Shown: positions 4,907 to 32,165 of the stretch, one piece after another | How positions within the stretch are numbered: the first letter of the stretch is position 1 | Layout: every line of letters starts with the position of its first letter | IMG/VR virus record: IMGVR_UViG_3300031576_001289 | Span: 1 to 34,944 of that record | DNA: 34,944 bases | From: a virus | Taxonomy: Duplodnaviria > Caudoviricetes | Direction: 5' to 3' (one strand) | Notes under the pieces: model-generated | The model's input: the letters and a program-made list of their open reading frames with translations, nothing else | Database searches by the model: none | What the model was told of the DNA's origin: nothing | Made by a program: the position numbers and the translations under genes

Positions 4907-4919
4907 GGCCTACTATCGG
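4907..4919 (-). promoter_or_regulatory. Late motif copy 1
   Basis: CCGATAGTAGGCC immediately before ATG 4906; also supplies the stop of the upstream gene. Confidence 0.8.
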
Positions 4920-6029: not shown

Positions 6030-6042
6030 GGCCTACTATCGG
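6030..6042 (-). promoter_or_regulatory. Late motif copy 2
   Basis: CCGATAGTAGGCC immediately before GTG 6029. Confidence 0.8.
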
Positions 6043-12017: not shown

Positions 12018-12030
12018 GGCCTACTATCGG
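12018..12030 (-). promoter_or_regulatory. Late motif copy 3
   Basis: CCGATAGTAGGCC immediately before GTG 12017. Confidence 0.8.
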
Positions 12031-17727: not shown

Positions 17728-17740
17728 GGCCTACTATCGG
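17728..17740 (-). promoter_or_regulatory. Late motif copy 4
   Basis: CCGATAGTAGGCC-G-ATG. Confidence 0.8.
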
Positions 17741-20551: not shown

Positions 20552-21145
20552 TCCGGGCCTACTATCGGACGACGGATCCGAAACGCCGGGCGCCTCGCGT
20601 GCGGCCAACTCGACCAGGACGTCGAAGGCACGCTCCGCGAAGTCCTGCTTTTCGTCGGTCACGTCGACGAAGCGGCGCTCGATCCCGTCCCCGTCCTCGT
20701 AGAGCTTCACGACGTCATCGAGCGTGCTGACAGCCGGCAGCTTCGCCCCGAGCCAGGCGAGACCGGTGACCGCCCAGTCGTGCGTGCGCCCAGTCTTCTG
20801 CGACGTAACCCTCGACAACTCGACCGACCGATGACGCCACGCCCCACGGCCGACGAGGTCTGCGAACTTGCGCGGCACCTGCTTGATGTCGCTCAAGAGC
20901 TTCTGCCCGTCGTCTGAGACGCGAATGTTGGAGAGCCACCCGACCGCAGGATCCGACGATTTGCTGTGCCCGATCTTCGACGGCGGCTTGATCTCTTCGG
21001 CGAGATCAAGGTTCGCGTCCGCGATCTCGCGTAGCTGCTCGGGGGTCCAGTGATCGCCCTCCGGCGGCGACCCGACTCCGTGGATCGGCCCGCCCACGCT
21101 CAGGATCTCGACGCCCTCGAGGTCGACGGTCTCAAGCTCAGGCAT
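19958..21145 (-). CDS. Prohead protease-scaffold (Mu I-like)
   Basis: KIGH, PAVGW, WRHRSVEL, TGLAWLGAKLPAV; coiled-coil C-terminus. Confidence 0.85.
   Translation of the reverse strand: MPELETVDLEGVEILSVGGPIHGVGSPPEGDHWTPEQLREIADANLDLAEEIKPPSKIGHSKSSDPAVGWLSNIRVSDDGQKLLSDIKQVPRKFADLVGRGAWRHRSVELSRVTSQKTGRTHDWAVTGLAWLGAKLPAVSTLDDVVKLYEDGDGIERRFVDVTDEKQDFAERAFDVLVELAAREAPGVSDPSSDSRPGMPKFTDEQRRKFAEATGLEAVKVTDELLGKAGLVGEQPAPVVSDAEAQEIAKTLDVEGEVTGAKLLEAAKKAAEDGDEGGGDGDEATKALERRLEAAEKTANETKEELRLEHRRAFVEAALKTGKVTPGQRETLEALYDSNAVAARKFVDEAPANDELGREYGSADEPADDEAADAQAKAYEADIARMAGVTAEDVI
20556..20568 (-). promoter_or_regulatory. Late motif copy 5 (intragenic)
   Basis: CCGATAGTAGGCC-CGGA-ATG inside the protease gene. 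Confidence 0.75.
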
Positions 21146-21164
21146 CAGCGGCCCCCGGGACGAG

Positions 21165-21236
21165 TAGCGCCGCCCCGGATCGAACGGGGGACCTCCGGGT
21201 TATGGGCCCGGCGAGCTGCCACTGCTCCACGGCGCA
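21165..21236 (-). tRNA. Initiator tRNA-fMet (CAT), no encoded CCA
   Basis: 72-nt cloverleaf TGCGCCG TG GAGC AGTGGCA GCTC G CCGGG CCCATAA CCCGG AGGTC CCCCG TTCGATC CGGGG CGGCGCT A; 1:72 mismatch, A11:U24, three G:C anticodon-stem pairs. Confidence 0.9.
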
Positions 21237-21240
21237 TCGT

Positions 21241-21253
21241 GGCCTACTATCGG
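21241..21253 (-). promoter_or_regulatory. Late motif copy 6
   Basis: CCGATAGTAGGCC-ACGA then the tRNA 5' end. Confidence 0.8.
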
Positions 21254-22326: not shown

Positions 22327-22339
22327 GGTCTACTATCGC
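22327..22339 (-). promoter_or_regulatory. Late motif copy 7 (variant)
   Basis: GCGATAGTAGACC immediately before GTG 22326. Confidence 0.75.
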
Positions 22340-22941: not shown

Positions 22942-22954
22942 GGCCTACTGTCGG
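22942..22954 (-). promoter_or_regulatory. Late motif copy 8 (variant)
   Basis: CCGACAGTAGGCC immediately before GTG 22941. Confidence 0.75.
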
Positions 22955-22960
22955 GCGCCG

Positions 22961-23056
22961 CTACTTCGGCGACGGGCTAGGCGGCTTCGGCCTCTTTACG
23001 AGTTCGCCGGGCTTCCAGGTGATCCGCTCACCCAGGGATGACTGTCGCGAAGACAT
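22961..23056 (-). CDS. 31-aa peptide MSSRQSSLGERITWKPGELVKRPKPPSPSPK, candidate ART immunity
   Basis: ATG overlaps the last codons of the ART gene; fills the gap up to the next motif. Confidence 0.5.
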   Translation of the reverse strand: MSSRQSSLGERITWKPGELVKRPKPPSPSPK

Positions 23057-24293
23057 ACCTAGTCACGATGCTAGCACGGCCCGGGTATGAGGTCACGCGT
23101 TCCTCGACGCGATCGATCCGCAACGCAACCCCGCGGCCGAGCAAGATCTCACGCTCATTACGCACAGTCGGCGCGCCGGCCGCGTTGAGATCTAGCGCCT
23201 TTGTGCCGGCCGGAAGTGTGATCTCCCACACGTCTCCGTACGGGCCCGCCCACGACTCGGGCAGTGCGTTTGTCGCGGATGTGCTCATGAACCCGAGGTC
23301 GTCGAACACGTCGCCTGCCTCCACTTCGACCGGGGTGGAGAAGGCGCGCCACACGAGCCGCTCGGAGCGCAGCGGCGACGCCTTGTCGATCGCTCGGTCG
23401 ACGCGGTCGACCACGTCATCGATGTCGGCGCGGGCGGTTGGGGAGAGCTGGAGCAGCTGACGCAGGTAGCCGTTGATCTGCTCGTATTCGGAGCTGGTGT
23501 ACCTGCCGATCGCCACTTTCTCTGAATCGGTTAGGTCAGCGGTCAGCCGCGCTCGAGGTTCAGCCGCGGCATTGACGGGGACGGCGCGGCAGCGGCAGCG
23601 GCCGCCGCCCAAGCATCGAGGGTTGGGCCCGAAGTTCGGCAGCACCCGGAACAGCTCCTCAAGCGTCGCGTAACGGGTGCCGTTCAGCGGGCGGCAGACG
23701 TCGCAGGTGCCTCCGTCCAGTATCGCCGTGTACTCCCACTCGGCGATCAAGTCGGAGACGGTGTCGAACGTCTCCGCAAGCCCGCCGATCAGCGCCGTCG
23801 ACACCATCCGCGAGGCGATGTCTCGCGCGCCGGGCACGGCAAGCGCCGCGCGCACGAGCGCGGACTGCGCGGCGCCGCCAACGTCGAGGAAGACGAGCTC
23901 GTCCTCGATCCGGATCTGCATGCCGGTGAGGCCGCGTCGCAGATAGTCGTCGAGATCGCCCGGCCCCGCCGGGCGCGAGTCGACGTACTGGCGGCCGGCG
24001 ACGTCATAGCCCAGCCGCTCAAGCTCGTTCCACCCCTCGACGCGGCCGAGCTCCGCCAGCTGCTCGAGCGGCTTGCGCATGGCGTCGGTCACGAGCAGCT
24101 CGAGCCGGTGCTGGGATCCGCGCGCGCGGATCCCACGGCTGATCTCGACATGGATCGCCCGCTCCAGCCTGTTCTTGGCGCCGGCGAGCGCCTGGTCGAG
24201 CAGCGCGACGTCGATCGCCTGCTCGGCTTCGCTGAGCTGCCGCCCGACGAGCCGCTCAACGTACGAGCGAGGCTCGGTGAGGGTGGCGGTCAC
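23028..24293 (-). CDS. MuF head morphogenesis protein fused to a VIP2/C3-like ADP-ribosyltransferase
   Basis: GTGA-coupled start 24293; MuF DGGTCDVC...CRCR; ART YT...Y..INGYLR, VWR, FMSTS, ERE. Confidence 0.9.
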   Translation of the reverse strand: MTATLTEPRSYVERLVGRQLSEAEQAIDVALLDQALAGAKNRLERAIHVEISRGIRARGSQHRLELLVTDAMRKPLEQLAELGRVEGWNELERLGYDVAGRQYVDSRPAGPGDLDDYLRRGLTGMQIRIEDELVFLDVGGAAQSALVRAALAVPGARDIASRMVSTALIGGLAETFDTVSDLIAEWEYTAILDGGTCDVCRPLNGTRYATLEELFRVLPNFGPNPRCLGGGRCRCRAVPVNAAAEPRARLTADLTDSEKVAIGRYTSSEYEQINGYLRQLLQLSPTARADIDDVVDRVDRAIDKASPLRSERLVWRAFSTPVEVEAGDVFDDLGFMSTSATNALPESWAGPYGDVWEITLPAGTKALDLNAAGAPTVRNEREILLGRGVALRIDRVEERVTSYPGRASIVTRYVFATVIPG

Positions 24294-24904
24294 GCGAGGG
24301 TGACATCGGCGAGCACACTGATGCGTCCCCGCCCGACCGTCGTCTTGGTGCCGTCGGGCTCCTCGAGCTGCACGTCGCACTCCAGCCGCGACGTCTCGGT
24401 GAGCGCGGCGGTGTCAGCCGGGTTGACGACGACGGTGGCGAAGCTCTTCCCCGTCGAGGCGGGGCTGTTGAGGGTGATCCCGCCGGGGCCGCCGCCGACG
24501 CCCGCGGTCTTCGCGATCACGGCCGCGGCGTCCGTGTCGGCGAGCGAGCGTTTCGCGGTCAGCCACATCTTCACGTTCGCGAGTGACAGGTCGATGTTGC
24601 GGATTGGCACCAGCCTCCCGGTCGCCCCGCCGGCTGTGGTGCCGGCGGAGCCGAGCAGCGTCACCCGCGTCGTCGAGGGGACCGACTGCACGACCCATTC
24701 GCCGTTCGCCTGCGCGTTGCCCTGATGGGCGTCGACGCGGCAGCGGTCTCCCACCAGGAGGCCGTGGGCGGCGGCGGTCGTGATCTCGATCGGCGTTGCG
24801 GCCGTGGACGAGGAGATCTCGAGCGACGGGTATTCGCGCATGACCGGGCCGACCTCGATCGTGGCGCGGTCGCCGCGGACTAGTTCGATGTCGACAACGT
24901 TCAT
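24290..24904 (-). CDS. Virion structural protein (BppU-like with inserted beta domain)
   Basis: IELVRGD...VVVNPADT...CDVQL...GRISV, with an ITTAAAHGLLVGD...NGEWVV insert. Confidence 0.65.
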   Translation of the reverse strand: MNVVDIELVRGDRATIEVGPVMREYPSLEISSSTAATPIEITTAAAHGLLVGDRCRVDAHQGNAQANGEWVVQSVPSTTRVTLLGSAGTTAGGATGRLVPIRNIDLSLANVKMWLTAKRSLADTDAAAVIAKTAGVGGGPGGITLNSPASTGKSFATVVVNPADTAALTETSRLECDVQLEEPDGTKTTVGRGRISVLADVTLA

Positions 24905-26712: not shown

Positions 26713-26725
26713 CGCCTACTATCGG
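26713..26725 (-). promoter_or_regulatory. Late motif copy 10
   Basis: CCGATAGTAGGCG-CGG-ATG; also supplies the stop of the upstream 59-aa ORF. Confidence 0.75.
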
Positions 26726-28358: not shown

Positions 28359-28371
28359 GGCCTACTATCGC
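28359..28371 (-). promoter_or_regulatory. Late motif copy 11
   Basis: GCGATAGTAGGCC immediately before GTG 28358. Confidence 0.8.
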
Positions 28372-28387: not shown

Positions 28388-30202
28388 TCAGAGGACGCCG
28401 CCCGACAGCGGCGCCATCTCGTCGTCACCCGAGAACGCCGCGCGCGCCAGCTGCCGCCGGCGGGTGAGCGGATGCTGCTCAGGGTCGGGCGCATCCGGGG
28501 AAGGCCAGCCGTGGGTGCGCTCGTCCGGCGGCGGAAACGTCGCCACCGCCCAATAGGCGAACGCGCGGCAGGCGTGGTTGTGCACGTCGTCCTCCAAGTC
28601 CATCCCCTTGCCGTAGCGGACCTCGCCGGTGGCGCTCGAGCGCCACCGGTTCGACGCCAGGTGCGTCGCGAACTCGGCCGCATTGACGCCGCAGACCCGA
28701 AGCGGCTTCGGCGACCCGACGAGCAGCCGCTTCACGCAGTCGATCGTCACCTTGACGGTGCGCAGGCGGCCCGGCGGCCGACCGATGTTGAAGCCCTGCA
28801 TCCGGTACTGCGACACGATCGGGCGGCCCGTTGTGAGCGACCTGTCGTGGCCGGAGGGGTCGCCGACACAGCGCAGATGCCGCGTAACGTCAGGCTTCGT
28901 CTCGACCGCGCTCAAGCCGAGCTGCATCAGGTACAGACGAAGCTCGGCGGCGACATGCTCGGGCACCCCCGACATGTTGTGCTGCGACCCCATCTCCAGC
29001 AGCCCGACAATCCTGACCTCGTCGACGGCGTTCTGGATCACGACGACCGAGGTGGTGTCGAGGCCGTAGTCCCAGGCGAGCTCGACCGGCGTCAAAGGCG
29101 ACCCGGCCTCCGACATCACGATCTCGATGCCGTCGGCGACGACGTGCACAGCGGGGTCGAACTCGGTGAACACCCGGCCGGGCAAAGATCCGTGCCGGTC
29201 GATGTCGAGCTCGGCCGCGACCTGCTCGTCGGTCTTCTCGAGCACCTCCTGGTCGTACCACGGTGATGTCAGCTTGCCGCGGTAGCGGTGCGCCCGCGGG
29301 TTCGACGGATCCCACCGCACGCCGTCACGGACGCCGTCGCACATGCTGCAGCCCTCAAGCTCACCGGCGACGTGGGCGCCGAGCCCGTAGACGGGATGGC
29401 CCGACCAGTGCAGCCGCAGATACGTCCACCCGAGCGGCTTCTGATCGGCGAGACGGGCATGCATGTTCGTCGACCCCCGCGGCGTCGACAGGTACGCCTT
29501 CCCCGTCGGGCACGCCGACGACAGCGACGCATGCACGAGCTCGCCGTGTTGCACGCGGGCGGCCTCGTCGACGACAGCGAAGTCCAATGACTGGCCTCGG
29601 CCGGGGTCGTCTCCCTGCCCCTCCCCGTAGACGACGGCGCCGTTCGAGGGGTTCTCGATCTTCGACGGCTTCTGCTTGAACGTGAGCGGCCCGGCAAGGT
29701 AGGCGAGCCGGTCGCGGGGGAGCCGCTGGTCGATGTAGCGCACCTTCCCGAACAGGCTCTTCGGCGTGTTCGCTGCGCCGCCGTCGTCTATCTCGGCCAG
29801 GTCGACGTGCATGCACAGGCCCGCTACCGGATGGTGGTGGACGAGCCACGCGATGACGGCTGCGAACAGCCACGTCTCGCCGATCTGCCGGCTCTTCTCG
29901 ATCACCAGGTTGGAGAAGAAGCGAAGCTGGCCGGTTAGTGCGAGGTGGTCGAGGTCGATCCAGCCGCGGATCGTCTGCTGCTGGTCGGGGAACAGCCGCA
30001 TCTTGACGTTGCGGACCTGCTGGCGGTCGTACCCCTCCGAGGGCAGGAAGCTGGCGATCCAGACGTGGTCGTCGATCCAGCCGAAAGGGTCGCGGGCGTA
30101 CGTCTCAGCCTGGGTGAGCTCGACCTGGCGTTCGTCGCGGCGGGCCCGCCGCAGCTCCAGGCCCCTGACGGAGCCGCCGGCCAGCTCCTCGAGCGCGCTC
30201 AT
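28388..30202 (-). CDS. terL: Terminase large subunit
   Basis: EKSRQIGETW (Walker A), VVDEAA (Walker B), YLSTP, AWDYG and GDPSG nuclease motifs. Confidence 0.93.
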   Translation of the reverse strand: MSALEELAGGSVRGLELRRARRDERQVELTQAETYARDPFGWIDDHVWIASFLPSEGYDRQQVRNVKMRLFPDQQQTIRGWIDLDHLALTGQLRFFSNLVIEKSRQIGETWLFAAVIAWLVHHHPVAGLCMHVDLAEIDDGGAANTPKSLFGKVRYIDQRLPRDRLAYLAGPLTFKQKPSKIENPSNGAVVYGEGQGDDPGRGQSLDFAVVDEAARVQHGELVHASLSSACPTGKAYLSTPRGSTNMHARLADQKPLGWTYLRLHWSGHPVYGLGAHVAGELEGCSMCDGVRDGVRWDPSNPRAHRYRGKLTSPWYDQEVLEKTDEQVAAELDIDRHGSLPGRVFTEFDPAVHVVADGIEIVMSEAGSPLTPVELAWDYGLDTTSVVVIQNAVDEVRIVGLLEMGSQHNMSGVPEHVAAELRLYLMQLGLSAVETKPDVTRHLRCVGDPSGHDRSLTTGRPIVSQYRMQGFNIGRPPGRLRTVKVTIDCVKRLLVGSPKPLRVCGVNAAEFATHLASNRWRSSATGEVRYGKGMDLEDDVHNHACRAFAYWAVATFPPPDERTHGWPSPDAPDPEQHPLTRRRQLARAAFSGDDEMAPLSGGVL

Positions 30203-30324: not shown

Positions 30325-30599
30325 CAGCTGCCGTCGGCCGGGTCGGGCATGCGGCCGCGCCGCAGCGGCCCGAGCTTGCCGTCCCGTTCGACGAGCGTCC
30401 CCGCTGGGTACTCCGGCTCGGCGGGCCTGTCGACGGTGGGGGACGCTTCGACGGTCAGCAGCAGCGCCACGACGGGGCCGCCGACTGCGGCAACCACGGC
30501 GATCGCCCAGGCGACGTACAGGCCAACGAGGCAGAGCGCGACCACGTAGGCGGTGGCGCCGGCGAGCAGCGCGAGCCGGCGGAAGACGTCAGCGGTCAC
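30324..30599 (-). CDS. Small membrane protein
   Basis: Long hydrophobic stretch; GTGA overlap at 30596-30599. Confidence 0.7.
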   Translation of the reverse strand: MTADVFRRLALLAGATAYVVALCLVGLYVAWAIAVVAAVGGPVVALLLTVEASPTVDRPAEPEYPAGTLVERDGKLGPLRRGRMPDPADGS

Positions 30600-30960
30600 A
30601 GCTCGGCTCCGCAGGGGCAGCGGTCGGGGAGTGTCCAGCCGGGCTTGCCGTTGGGGGCGCAGGCGTAGGTTCGCCATCCGCAACCTGCGCAGTCCGCGAA
30701 CGCTCGATTTCGGAGCGTGCCTCCTCGACCCTGCGTCTCAGACCCTCCGACAGCTCCCGGGCGCCTGCGGCCGCCTGCAGGATCAGCTCTCTGCGCAGCA
30801 GCTGCACCCTGGTCGCGACCCAGTCCTCTGACCGGCCCGTCTCGACCGCGATCCTCCGGTAGCTCAACCCAGCCGCGAGGAAAGACCCGCAGATCCGGAT
30901 CGTCTCGGCCGCCTCTACGGTCAGCTGCCCCGGGTCGATCACCTGCAGGATCTCCGTCAT
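30589..30960 (-). CDS. Sigma70 region-4-like HTH protein nested in the +1 frame (alternative start GTG 31020)
   Basis: GLSYRRIAVETGRSEDWVATRVQLLRREL; strong GC3 bias in this frame from 30960 to about 30700. Confidence 0.7.
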   Translation of the reverse strand: MTEILQVIDPGQLTVEAAETIRICGSFLAAGLSYRRIAVETGRSEDWVATRVQLLRRELILQAAAGARELSEGLRRRVEEARSEIERSRTAQVADGEPTPAPPTASPAGHSPTAAPAEPSCDR

Positions 30961-31333
30961 CGACGCCGCCGTCCCGGAACGCCTGCTCGAAGGCCCGCTC
31001 GTCAACGACCCGCTTCTCACCGGCCCTCCCGTTGTACGACCGCCAGTAGTCGATCAGCGCCCACACGAGCTGCTGGTACAGCCAGGGGCCGAACTCGATC
31101 CCGGGCTTCGGCGTGAACCTGCCGGAGCGGATCCAGGCCTCGCCGATCAGGAACGTAAGATCCTCGTCGTAGTCGCGCTCCGACAGCCGCGTCGGCAGCC
31201 TCGACGTGAGCCGGTTCAGCACGCCACGGCACAGACCCTCCACGCCGCCTGCGCCGACGTCGCCCTGCGAGAGTTCCAGGATCACGGGCAGCATCCCGCC
31301 CGCATGCTGGTTCGCGACGGCTGCAACGGTCAC
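30596..31333 (-). CDS. Sigma70 region-2-like protein with C-terminal Zn ribbon
   Basis: DYDEDLTFLIGEAWIRSGRFTPKPGIEFGPWLYQQLVWALIDYWRS; CAGC...CPCG; GTGA overlaps at both ends. Confidence 0.7.
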   Translation of the reverse strand: MTVAAVANQHAGGMLPVILELSQGDVGAGGVEGLCRGVLNRLTSRLPTRLSERDYDEDLTFLIGEAWIRSGRFTPKPGIEFGPWLYQQLVWALIDYWRSYNGRAGEKRVVDERAFEQAFRDGGVDDGDPAGDRPGAADRRGGRDDPDLRVFPRGWVELPEDRGRDGPVRGLGRDQGAAAAQRADPAGGRRRPGAVGGSETQGRGGTLRNRAFADCAGCGWRTYACAPNGKPGWTLPDRCPCGAEL

Positions 31334-31587
31334 GCGGCACCCGTCTGGATCTCCTCCGCCCACGCCGCGAGCGCAGCCTTGGCCGTCTCCGTCAGCCGCA
31401 CCATGCCGCCGACCCGCGCCACGTACCGCTCCCGCTCCAACGCCCGCAACGCCGCCCTCACAACGTGCTCGGGCTGACCGAGCTCCGCCTCCAACTGGGC
31501 GACCGAACGCTCGCCGCCGTGCATGTCCAGCACCGGCGGGATCACCGCCGCGACCGCTGCGACCCGGCGGCGAAACCGGTCGTTCAC
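31330..31587 (-). CDS. Winged-HTH protein
   Basis: RSVAQLEAELGQPEHVVRAALRALERERYV. Confidence 0.75.
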   Translation of the reverse strand: MNDRFRRRVAAVAAVIPPVLDMHGGERSVAQLEAELGQPEHVVRAALRALERERYVARVGGMVRLTETAKAALAAWAEEIQTGAA

Positions 31588-32165
31588 GCCGGCACCTCGC
31601 GGCTATCACGTGCTGCCGCCGCCACCGCCCGCAGCGTCTCGTCCAGCGTCTCCACCACCATCTTGGCCCCCCCAGCGTCCACCCGAGCGGCCAGCTCCTC
31701 GAGCGCGACCACGGCGTCGTTGTAGGCGTCGATCAGCGGCCGGATCTCCGCCACCTCCACCCGGTTTGTTGCCTCACCAGCGTACAGCTGCTCGAGATGC
31801 GCCAACCTCGGCAGCACCCGCAACGCCACGCTCGGGTCAAGCTCGACGGCCGGGTCGAGCACCGTGTCACGGCACTTGTTCGCGACCAGAATGTTCTGCC
31901 GCTGCCGCTGCTCGATCGAGCGCACTGCCTCCCGCTCGAGCCTCACCGCGACCTGCGCCTCCAGCTTCGCCAGCCGCTCGCTCCACCCCTCCCTGTTGCC
32001 GACCCTGCGAACAGCGCCTTCGCTGACGCCGAAGTGTCTGGCGACCTGCGCGTAGCTGCGGCTGTGCCCTTGGTCGATGTAGAGCGCGAATGCTGCGTCG
32101 TAGTCGAAGCGTCTCCGTCCGCTGCGGAGCGGGGGTTTGCGGCGGCTAGCGGCGGGGGCGGTCAT
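31584..32165 (-). CDS. Terminase small subunit-like HTH protein
   Basis: AFALYIDQGHSRSYAQVARHFGVS...EGWSER followed by helices. Confidence 0.65.
   Translation of the reverse strand: MTAPAASRRKPPLRSGRRRFDYDAAFALYIDQGHSRSYAQVARHFGVSEGAVRRVGNREGWSERLAKLEAQVAVRLEREAVRSIEQRQRQNILVANKCRDTVLDPAVELDPSVALRVLPRLAHLEQLYAGEATNRVEVAEIRPLIDAYNDAVVALEELAARVDAGGAKMVVETLDETLRAVAAAARDSREVPA

Follow-up and report, generated by a model that had tools for sequence, protein, structure and literature searches.

Nested reading frames for the two halves of a putative sigma factor in a family of phages

Two overlapping genes between the terminase genes

The window, that is the whole analysed stretch of 34,944 nt, is a siphovirus-like genome with 70% GC that carries terminase, Mu-like portal, protease, capsid and tape measure genes. 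A longer contig of the same DNA (L013) continues into host-like genes, so the window is likely a prophage. Positions 1-6400 of L013, beyond the window, hold geranylgeranyl-reductase-like, PD40 plus lysyl-oxidase domain and pilin-like genes, and mark the likely prophage end. The MuF head-morphogenesis protein of the window (23028-24380, minus strand) carries an ADP-ribosyltransferase domain at its C-terminus (PF03496, E 2e-21; Alt-like PHROG 802), which makes it a candidate for a virion-delivered enzyme modifying the host. The locus studied here has the following features:

31584..32165, minus strand: terminase small subunit-like HTH gene, upstream of A (PHROG 6299, E 9e-7)
31330..31587, minus strand: small winged-helix gene, its own stop overlapping the start of A
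30596..31333, minus strand: gene A, 245 aa; sigma region-2 domain, then a disordered tail, then a Zn ribbon, with a GTGA overlap at each end
31019..31243, minus strand: region-2 three-helix domain, A residues 31-105; nearest to sigma28/WhiG/sigmaK, AF2 pLDDT 84-94
31054..31056, minus strand: TGA that closes frame B upstream
31018..31030, minus strand: SD-like GGGAGG (31030-31025) and GTG 31020, a candidate upstream start of B
30961..31030, minus strand: conserved GRxG[EQ][KH]R motif of A with the acidic spacer, where frame B is already open
30589..30960, minus strand: gene B, 123 aa, nested within A in the +1 frame; HTH resembling region 4, followed by a long helix; the conserved N-terminal site is an ATG
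30869..30871, minus strand: Trp155 of frame A, which depends on a rare T as third base of a B codon
30784..30870, minus strand: HTH core, B residues 31-59; Pfam Sigma70_r4_2 E 0.024-0.037, below the cut-off (best family member 4.5e-5)
30599..30694, minus strand: Zn ribbon DCxxCGWR-x-PNG-x-W-x-C-x1/2-C at the C-terminus of A, without its own frame-A start codon in the window
28388..30202, minus strand: terminase large subunit, downstream of A/B (PHROG 2, E 2.6e-9)

A preliminary description of this DNA had reported frame A from 31333 to 30596, a +1 frame opening after a TGA, GGGAGG before GTG 31020, ATG 30960 and GTGA overlaps at the two ends of A, and we found all of them. The +1 frame is open from 31053 to 30589. 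Since the TGA at 31056-31054 closes it upstream, entry into B must be downstream of this stop. Both reported switches of GC3 were seen in 90-nt windows: the value in frame A was 0.83-1.00 over region 2, that of the +1 frame was 0.90-0.93 for windows starting at 31010-30860, and frame A again gave 0.83-0.87 over the Zn ribbon.

The same description had placed a sigma region 2 in A and a region-4-like HTH in B. Pfam Sigma70_r2 and Sigma70_r4_2 fall at these positions, both below cut-off (Sigma70_r2 on A residues 66-100, E 0.071, 13.3 bits against a cut-off of 24). AlphaFold predicted three confident helices in A (residues 31-105), a disordered stretch (residues 123-209) and an ordered Zn ribbon. 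When the model was searched with VIA, sigma factors took all top 7 rows (Z 7.9-6.8, rmsd 1.9-3.4, 68-83 residues), with pro-sigmaK (Z 7.9), WhiG (7.6) and sigmaB (7.5) among them, all below the tool's Z 8 caution line. Foldseek placed WhiG at the top (prob 0.91, rmsd 1.9 over 68 columns, E 0.91; no row at E <= 0.001), and FliA and WhiG were among the 6 best matches of an A profile to PDB sequences (E 0.08-0.55). The ESM Atlas gave sigma-like neighbours of A at 0.93-0.94, which is a lead only. Gly102 and Arg103 of A are invariant in 22/22 aligned rows.

In the predicted structure of B, an HTH is preceded by one helix and followed by a long one. Region 4 of SigL was its top Foldseek match (prob 1.00, E 0.064; no row at E <= 0.001), and in VIA the LuxR/NarL-type HTHs tie with sigma region 4 in Z. 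The models thereby suggest a sigma-like fold in each frame. No PHROG was matched by A or B, and a homology of A to B was compared and rejected. No single match is significant for the A or B of the window; sequence, fold, order and fused relatives agree.

A sequencing error had been considered an insufficient explanation for the two switches, and it is ruled out by the gapless X1 run (possibly the source) and by eleven other loci that keep the layout. A 209-base contig from another study (X2; weak, depth 2.9) spans 30801-31003, across the start of B, with 8 substitutions and no indel. Elsewhere in the X2 run, over window positions 30598-31407, a close relative has 1290 other letters replacing these 808 between near-identical flanks, which suggests that the A/B cassette was exchanged or diverged there.

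An open frame A over B is not surprising in a single genome. Its chance in 70% GC DNA is about 40% per genome, so one window cannot show a selected overlap, but relatives can. After synonymous recoding of B, A remained open in 36-63% of trials per locus. Frame A is open over the first 66 B codons in 11/12 loci against 5.5 expected (P about 1e-3 if independent) and in 4/5 of the terminase-found subset (P 0.15, not significant); the loci are related, so every P value overstates the significance. The exception, L030, has the A stop inside B. Over the B core, the 12 loci hold 14 Trp codons in frame A where 2.4 were expected, and in most of them the A stop overlaps the next gene's start as NTGA. 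We attribute the open tail of A to the selected Trp, to the Zn ribbon in some lineages and to the stop of A, through which the next gene is coupled. A double frameshift from A to B and back to A is unnecessary, since A itself is open.

Split and fused relatives

With the first half of A as a query we obtained a protein 44% identical along the whole of A, the low-complexity middle included, and full-length homologues of A share 31-51% identity. The DNA motif scan by itself led to a provirus (G001) in which A (40%) and B (44%) have the same phase. The cultured bacterium Gaiella occulta has a protein, Gocc_2895, that is identical to the A of this provirus. Scans with the A alignment gave five further loci. 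The terminase scan, which is blind to A/B, gave 11 loci, six of them new, and region 2 and the HTH stood in +1 phase in 5/5 of those with enough upstream DNA. The two-frame layout is thus kept by the relatives: B lies in the +1 frame inside A in 12/12 independent DNA loci, none of which is fused, and the loci are 23-51% identical. The GC3 of B is 0.78-0.95 across all 12. Left out of this count were L013 (identical to the window), L018, L020 and L036 (cut off; 100% match to L017 over the part present), the repeat copies L011, L019, L021, L034, L035, L037 and L038, and L039 (region 2 cut off; it has the Zn ribbon and the motif).

Viral contigs scanned with A or B as single proteins gave no matches. 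Two short-pattern scans of GTDB genome contigs also gave none, by a method that missed G. occulta, so absence is not implied. Among INPHARED phages there was no match to A, and the terminase gave distant matches only.

The profile search with A returned 826 clusters at E <= 0.001 and 255 at 1e-10 (clusters at 50% identity). For the 150 best protein relatives, which came without DNA, we tested the tails for a B-like HTH one base over, at a score of 70 or more. Layout-compatible tails were found in 83, the HTH was in frame in 10, 51 were unclassified and 6 were too short, while the controls gave 0/143 shuffled tails and 0/143 in the +2 phase. The nested layout is thus predicted for 83 proteins from their tails, with the reservation that the profile contained the tail, favouring such matches. 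In P0094, P0120 and P0127 the tail starts like an off-frame A tail and ends with a helix like the last one of B; they are possible intermediates, mosaic as if from two compensating shifts.

The layout might also be an artefact of assembly, or the remnant of a sigma gene that decayed and gained two frameshifts compensating each other; loci that are mostly metagenome contigs and the intact fused relatives would be compatible with this. It hardly deserves belief in view of the same phase in 12/12 loci at 23-51% identity, one of them with an A identical to an NCBI protein of G. occulta, the codon bias of B, the conservation of its HTH and the independent run without indel.

The ten in-frame proteins, one of them a 108-aa fragment, hold region 2 and the B-like HTH in one frame, and P0140 (27.8 bits) and P0145 (26.3 bits) exceed the Pfam Sigma70_r2 cut-off of 24 bits. 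Such fused relatives indicate that one sigma is divided between A and B. In a region-2 tree of 50 rows (10 fused and 40 split, chosen by us), the fused proteins fall within well-supported split clades, and grouping nine of them together was rejected (AU p 0.0008; the fused group was set before the tree, the AU test was run after the tree was seen and the bootstrap had not settled). As the fused forms are scattered among the split ones, the two states have interchanged more than once, and this is the strongest argument for A and B as parts of one sigma. A tree of B did not recover the branching order. A single continuous ORF in relatives had been named as grounds for rejecting the layout. Fused forms do exist (10/150), but they are a scattered minority, and the layout stands. 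Shifting an ordinary region 2-region 4 gene by one base within its linker could have created it, and lineages would then have moved between fused and split several times.

The Zn ribbon reported for A is present in the window, but it is not a core element. It occurs in 7/12 DNA loci and in 42 of the best 150 protein relatives, and it is missing from 5/5 terminase-found loci with complete A, 44/83 layout-compatible proteins and 10/10 fused proteins. Since so many relatives lack it, we regard it as an optional accessory. The ribbon as a separate gene was ruled out for the window, L010, L015 and L017, where the tail has no frame-A start; in L012, L014 and L016, GTG codons lie within the frame-A tail. 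The YDSRSH clade (L012, L031, L032, L033; P0007, P0008, P0010, P0014) has an additional N-terminal Cys/His finger on A, FCxCGH...C.H...CxC. In L033 and L040 the A stop is coupled to a similar gene (...W...G..L...G....WW.GDW...), and the window has a membrane-protein gene there.

Production of B

Two routes to B had been proposed, separate initiation and frameshifting. The first is now better supported, though not proven, and the second less so. At the aligned N-terminal codon of B the 12 loci have ATG (5), TTG (2), GTG (1), CTG (2), ACG (1, L040) and TGG (1, L014), so that NTG stands there in 10/12, compared to 2.8% of +1 codons in ordinary genes. By eye, an SD 4-mer lies 4-10 nt ahead of a frame-B ATG, GTG or TTG in the spacer of 7/12 loci, and the same combination occurred in 4.7% of the 1482 control windows of 25 codons. 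In L014 and L040 the conserved site offers no usable start, but an SD with a start codon lies upstream in each; of the five loci without SD plus start, three have ATG at the conserved site. L033 has CTG/TTG only and no SD. The fused P0071 has Leu at the position of B's start site, and the site may merely require a hydrophobic residue.

No canonical slippery site had been noticed in the window, and this held for the set of 12 loci: 12/12 spacers lack an XXXYYYZ heptamer, and they share no shift word beyond A codons, although +1 sites of a non-canonical kind could be present. Taken together, the conserved NTG, the enrichment of SD plus start and the missing slippery site make an own start of B most likely. 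We also considered whether B might be coupled to an ORF in the third frame that stops at the NTGA, and rejected it for the window, where this frame is open for only 14 codons ahead of the NTGA and has no start, and for L010 and L012, which have no conserved ORF there.

Alternatively, programmed +1 recoding in the GRxG-spacer could join region 2 and region 4 into one fused sigma, with or without free B at its side, while unshifted ribosomes would make A with its tail, so that one mRNA would give alternative sigma forms. In-frame fusions do recur among the split forms, the phase is +1 and the spacer is open in frame B in 12/12 loci, and the distance from region 2 to the HTH in a hypothetical +1 fusion is 38-63 (47-63 in 9/12), compared to 46-61 in 8/9 natural fusions. 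The G-R codons include the rare AGG/AGA in 5/12 loci, along with SD-like runs, which can also stimulate frameshifts. We had tried linker length as an argument against fusion and it mostly failed, only 3/12 hypothetical fusions (38, 42 and 44) being shorter than any natural one. Against recoding, apart from these three and the missing heptamer and shift word, stand the frame-B start codons and SD sites far above chance and a frame A without a stop near the switch; besides, GGC-AGA, GGC-CGC and similar codons permit no +1 re-pairing. Since the spacing fits a fused product, we keep recoding as a possible, if rather unlikely, route. Somewhat doubtful, too, is a combination of both routes, in which +1 recoding plus internal initiation would give three sigma products from one mRNA: the fusion, region 4 on its own, and region 2 with the tail, whether or not this includes the Zn ribbon. 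If this were true, their ratio would be a switch on late transcription, and the family would toggle between fused and split by one base.

A late motif and its putative reader

Downstream of A/B, the 13-mer CCGATAGTAGGCC was matched 10 times when up to 2 mismatches were allowed, where 0.41 matches were expected. All are on the minus strand:

28359..28371, minus strand: ahead of the portal gene
26713..26725, minus strand: ahead of a head-associated gene (Gp80-like)
22942..22954, minus strand: CGACAGT variant, ahead of a neck/tail-completion gene
22327..22339, minus strand: ahead of a 173-aa gene
21241..21253, minus strand: ahead of a tRNA-Met gene
21164..21236, minus strand: tRNA-Met(CAT), 4 nt behind the 13-mer (ARAGORN on L013, 20098-20170, mapped)
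20556..20568, minus strand: within the protease ORF, ahead of an in-frame ATG
17728..17740, minus strand: ahead of a 114-aa gene
12018..12030, minus strand: behind the tape measure gene
6030..6042, minus strand: ahead of a 207-aa gene
4907..4919, minus strand: ahead of a CHAP-domain (lysin-like) gene

The motif has the core CGA-N3-T and comes in five variants, each uniform within one phage. CGATAGT is found in the window (9 copies) and in G001 (8), CGATACT in four loci (10, 8, 5 and 1 copies), CGAAYCT in all four DNA loci of the YDSRSH clade (5, 10, 6 and 8 copies), CGACACT once in L014 and, by eye, CGACATT three times in L040. There were no opposite-strand copies of the four counted variants, and L015, which ends within the terminase gene, shows no motif. 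In six of the nine motif-scan loci (L004-L009; four searched as whole records, L007 and L008 as flanks only) we found isolated copies and no A/B, and we treated them as chance.

The distance from the motif to the start codon is exactly 5 nt in 26/33 sites, which had been selected for a start within 4-8 nt. The same 33 sites gave no -35 signal: from -50 to -2 no column exceeds 0.23 bits, and the TAAA of sigma28 is missing. In G001 a tRNA-Met(CAT) gene likewise follows the motif (L022, 16336-16408, ARAGORN), and in both phages it lies amid head genes. A motif ahead of a tRNA gene argues for a promoter rather than a translation signal, and the CGA-N3-T sites are likely leaderless late promoters. 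The ATG behind the motif in the protease ORF would then likely be the start of a separately promoted scaffold, nested in frame. A tRNA-Met among mostly GTG leaderless starts may matter for initiation. At 14099 of L026 (G007) a motif copy has neither a start codon nor an ARAGORN tRNA behind it, possibly marking a small RNA.

The preliminary description had taken the A/B pair for the best candidate reader of the motif. The core resembles the sigma28 -10 element, GCCGATAA, with a match in the CCGATA part. This element and the occurrence of WhiG homologues in Thermoleophilia are given in PMC8325347. The motif might therefore be read by a sigma of the host, either WhiG/sigma28 or, on leaderless promoters, the primary one; or it might be a translation signal, with A/B acting elsewhere. 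The element shared by the Thermoleophilia homologues would fit, and so would a motif type that is confounded with phage lineage and possibly with host. We nevertheless consider this very improbable, since sigma28's TAAA is missing at -35, the five variants are each nearly invariant per phage and a translation signal would hardly be expected ahead of a tRNA gene.

A test of whether the motif covaries with region 2 had been suggested. The type does change by lineage, but the terminase tree tracks it equally well; as the variants follow both trees alike, covariation is inseparable from descent. The window and G001 have the same motif despite a greatly different region 2.4. The residues after GRxG are E-K where the base following the motif T is A, and Q-H where it is C, in the window, G001, L014, L016 and L017, a pattern broken by L030 (E-K with C) and by the YDSRSH clade (Q-H with A).

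We lean towards a model in which early transcription of the terminase operon would give A and an internally started B, and the resulting split-sigma holoenzyme would open CGATAGT and produce leaderless late mRNAs. A, with region 2 and its acidic linker, would bind the beta-prime clamp helices and open CGATAGT, which would serve as the -10 element some 5 nt ahead of the start codon, and B would dock on the beta flap like region 4. Since there is no -35 signal, B would probably act through protein-protein contact, in the manner of T4 gp33. Judged from the sequences, A and B together are likely to read the CGA-N3-T motif and switch on the virus-particle genes.

A could also be a late sigma alone, with region 2 only and a -10-only promoter like T4 gp55, and B a modulator, an anti-sigma or an unrelated HTH regulator. 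The 33 sites without -35 information are in line with this, as are the recognition helix of B, which is variable and often acidic, the LuxR/NarL HTHs that match B at the Z of region 4 and certain relatives that consist of region 2 with merely a short tail. Still, a B-like HTH has repeatedly been fused in frame to region 2 (10/150), and B and its GC3 have been retained in 12/12 loci, which renders this account improbable.

Two-subunit sigmas as such are established: SigO-RsoA in B. subtilis, Sig7-Sig8 of Tn916, gp55/gp33 of T4 and gp33/34 of SPO1, and SigO-RsoA and Sig7-8 are described as reading -10 and -35, whereas we see no -35 signal, and Sig7-8 as serving the mobile element's own promoter, like the system here (bioRxiv 10.64898/2026.10.01.756105; PMC7826278). 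What we propose shares with SigO-RsoA and Sig7-Sig8 the placement of region 2 and region 4 on two polypeptides. The subunit genes of those pairs are adjacent, whereas here region 4 is nested +1 in the region-2 gene, in a sigma28-like lineage with an alternation of fused and split forms within the family. The likeness to T4 gp55+gp33 and SPO1 gp33+gp34 is phage late transcription by a split sigma. The T4 late promoter is -10 only and the T4 late sigma is coupled to the sliding clamp; T4 and SPO1 are lytic phages with the sigma subunits in separate genes, in contrast to the temperate phages, the nested genes and the likely leaderless promoter ahead of nearly every late gene here. We found no sequence link of A/B to the T4 or SPO1 late sigma pairs.

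The group 3 sigmas sigma28/FliA/WhiG are the best sequence and fold neighbours of A, and their -10 GCCGATAA resembles CCGATAGT. Unlike them, the system here has no region 3 (A 123-209 is predicted to be disordered), a region 4 that is off-chain and no -35 TAAA. The ECF-type (group 4) sigmas, including fused members of the A/B family, P0093, P0098, P0100, P0107, P0140 and P0145, have the same order of region 2, acidic linker and HTH. However, region 2 and region 4 on one polypeptide occur in 0/12 DNA loci, which use two frames, and in 10/150 proteins, all without the Zn ribbon. By its sequence A/B is a candidate for the two-subunit sigmas and would work like them, and by defining features it is neither sigma28 nor ECF. 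The late activators RinA/ArpU and P2 Ogr are also encoded just before the terminase and have a region-4-like HTH or a Cys4 zinc module, with no known region-2 partner. The start-associated sequences of cluster K are a 13-bp motif just before start codons, whereas the motif here also stands ahead of a tRNA gene.

The main texts of the open-access literature that we searched describe no nested or dual-frame sigma; supplements of phage-sigma surveys may list such proteins. Split sigmas are already known, and the nested dual-frame encoding is real, conserved and apparently new. If the proposed function is true, this is a split sigma with superimposed subunit genes, in a family that also holds fused forms. 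Gene callers report one frame only, so the annotation is a hypothetical protein. The family is sizeable (the 255 clusters at E <= 1e-10), with region 2 mostly below the Pfam cut-off. According to a recent study, single-domain sigma proteins are common in phages, and the A/B family is a natural series on the question of sigma domain split and fusion posed there (bioRxiv 10.64898/2026.10.08.757525). The five promoter variants are possible orthogonal -10-only leaderless promoter/sigma pairs for actinobacteria, and G. occulta, with Gocc_2895, is a cultured lysogen in which each step is testable.
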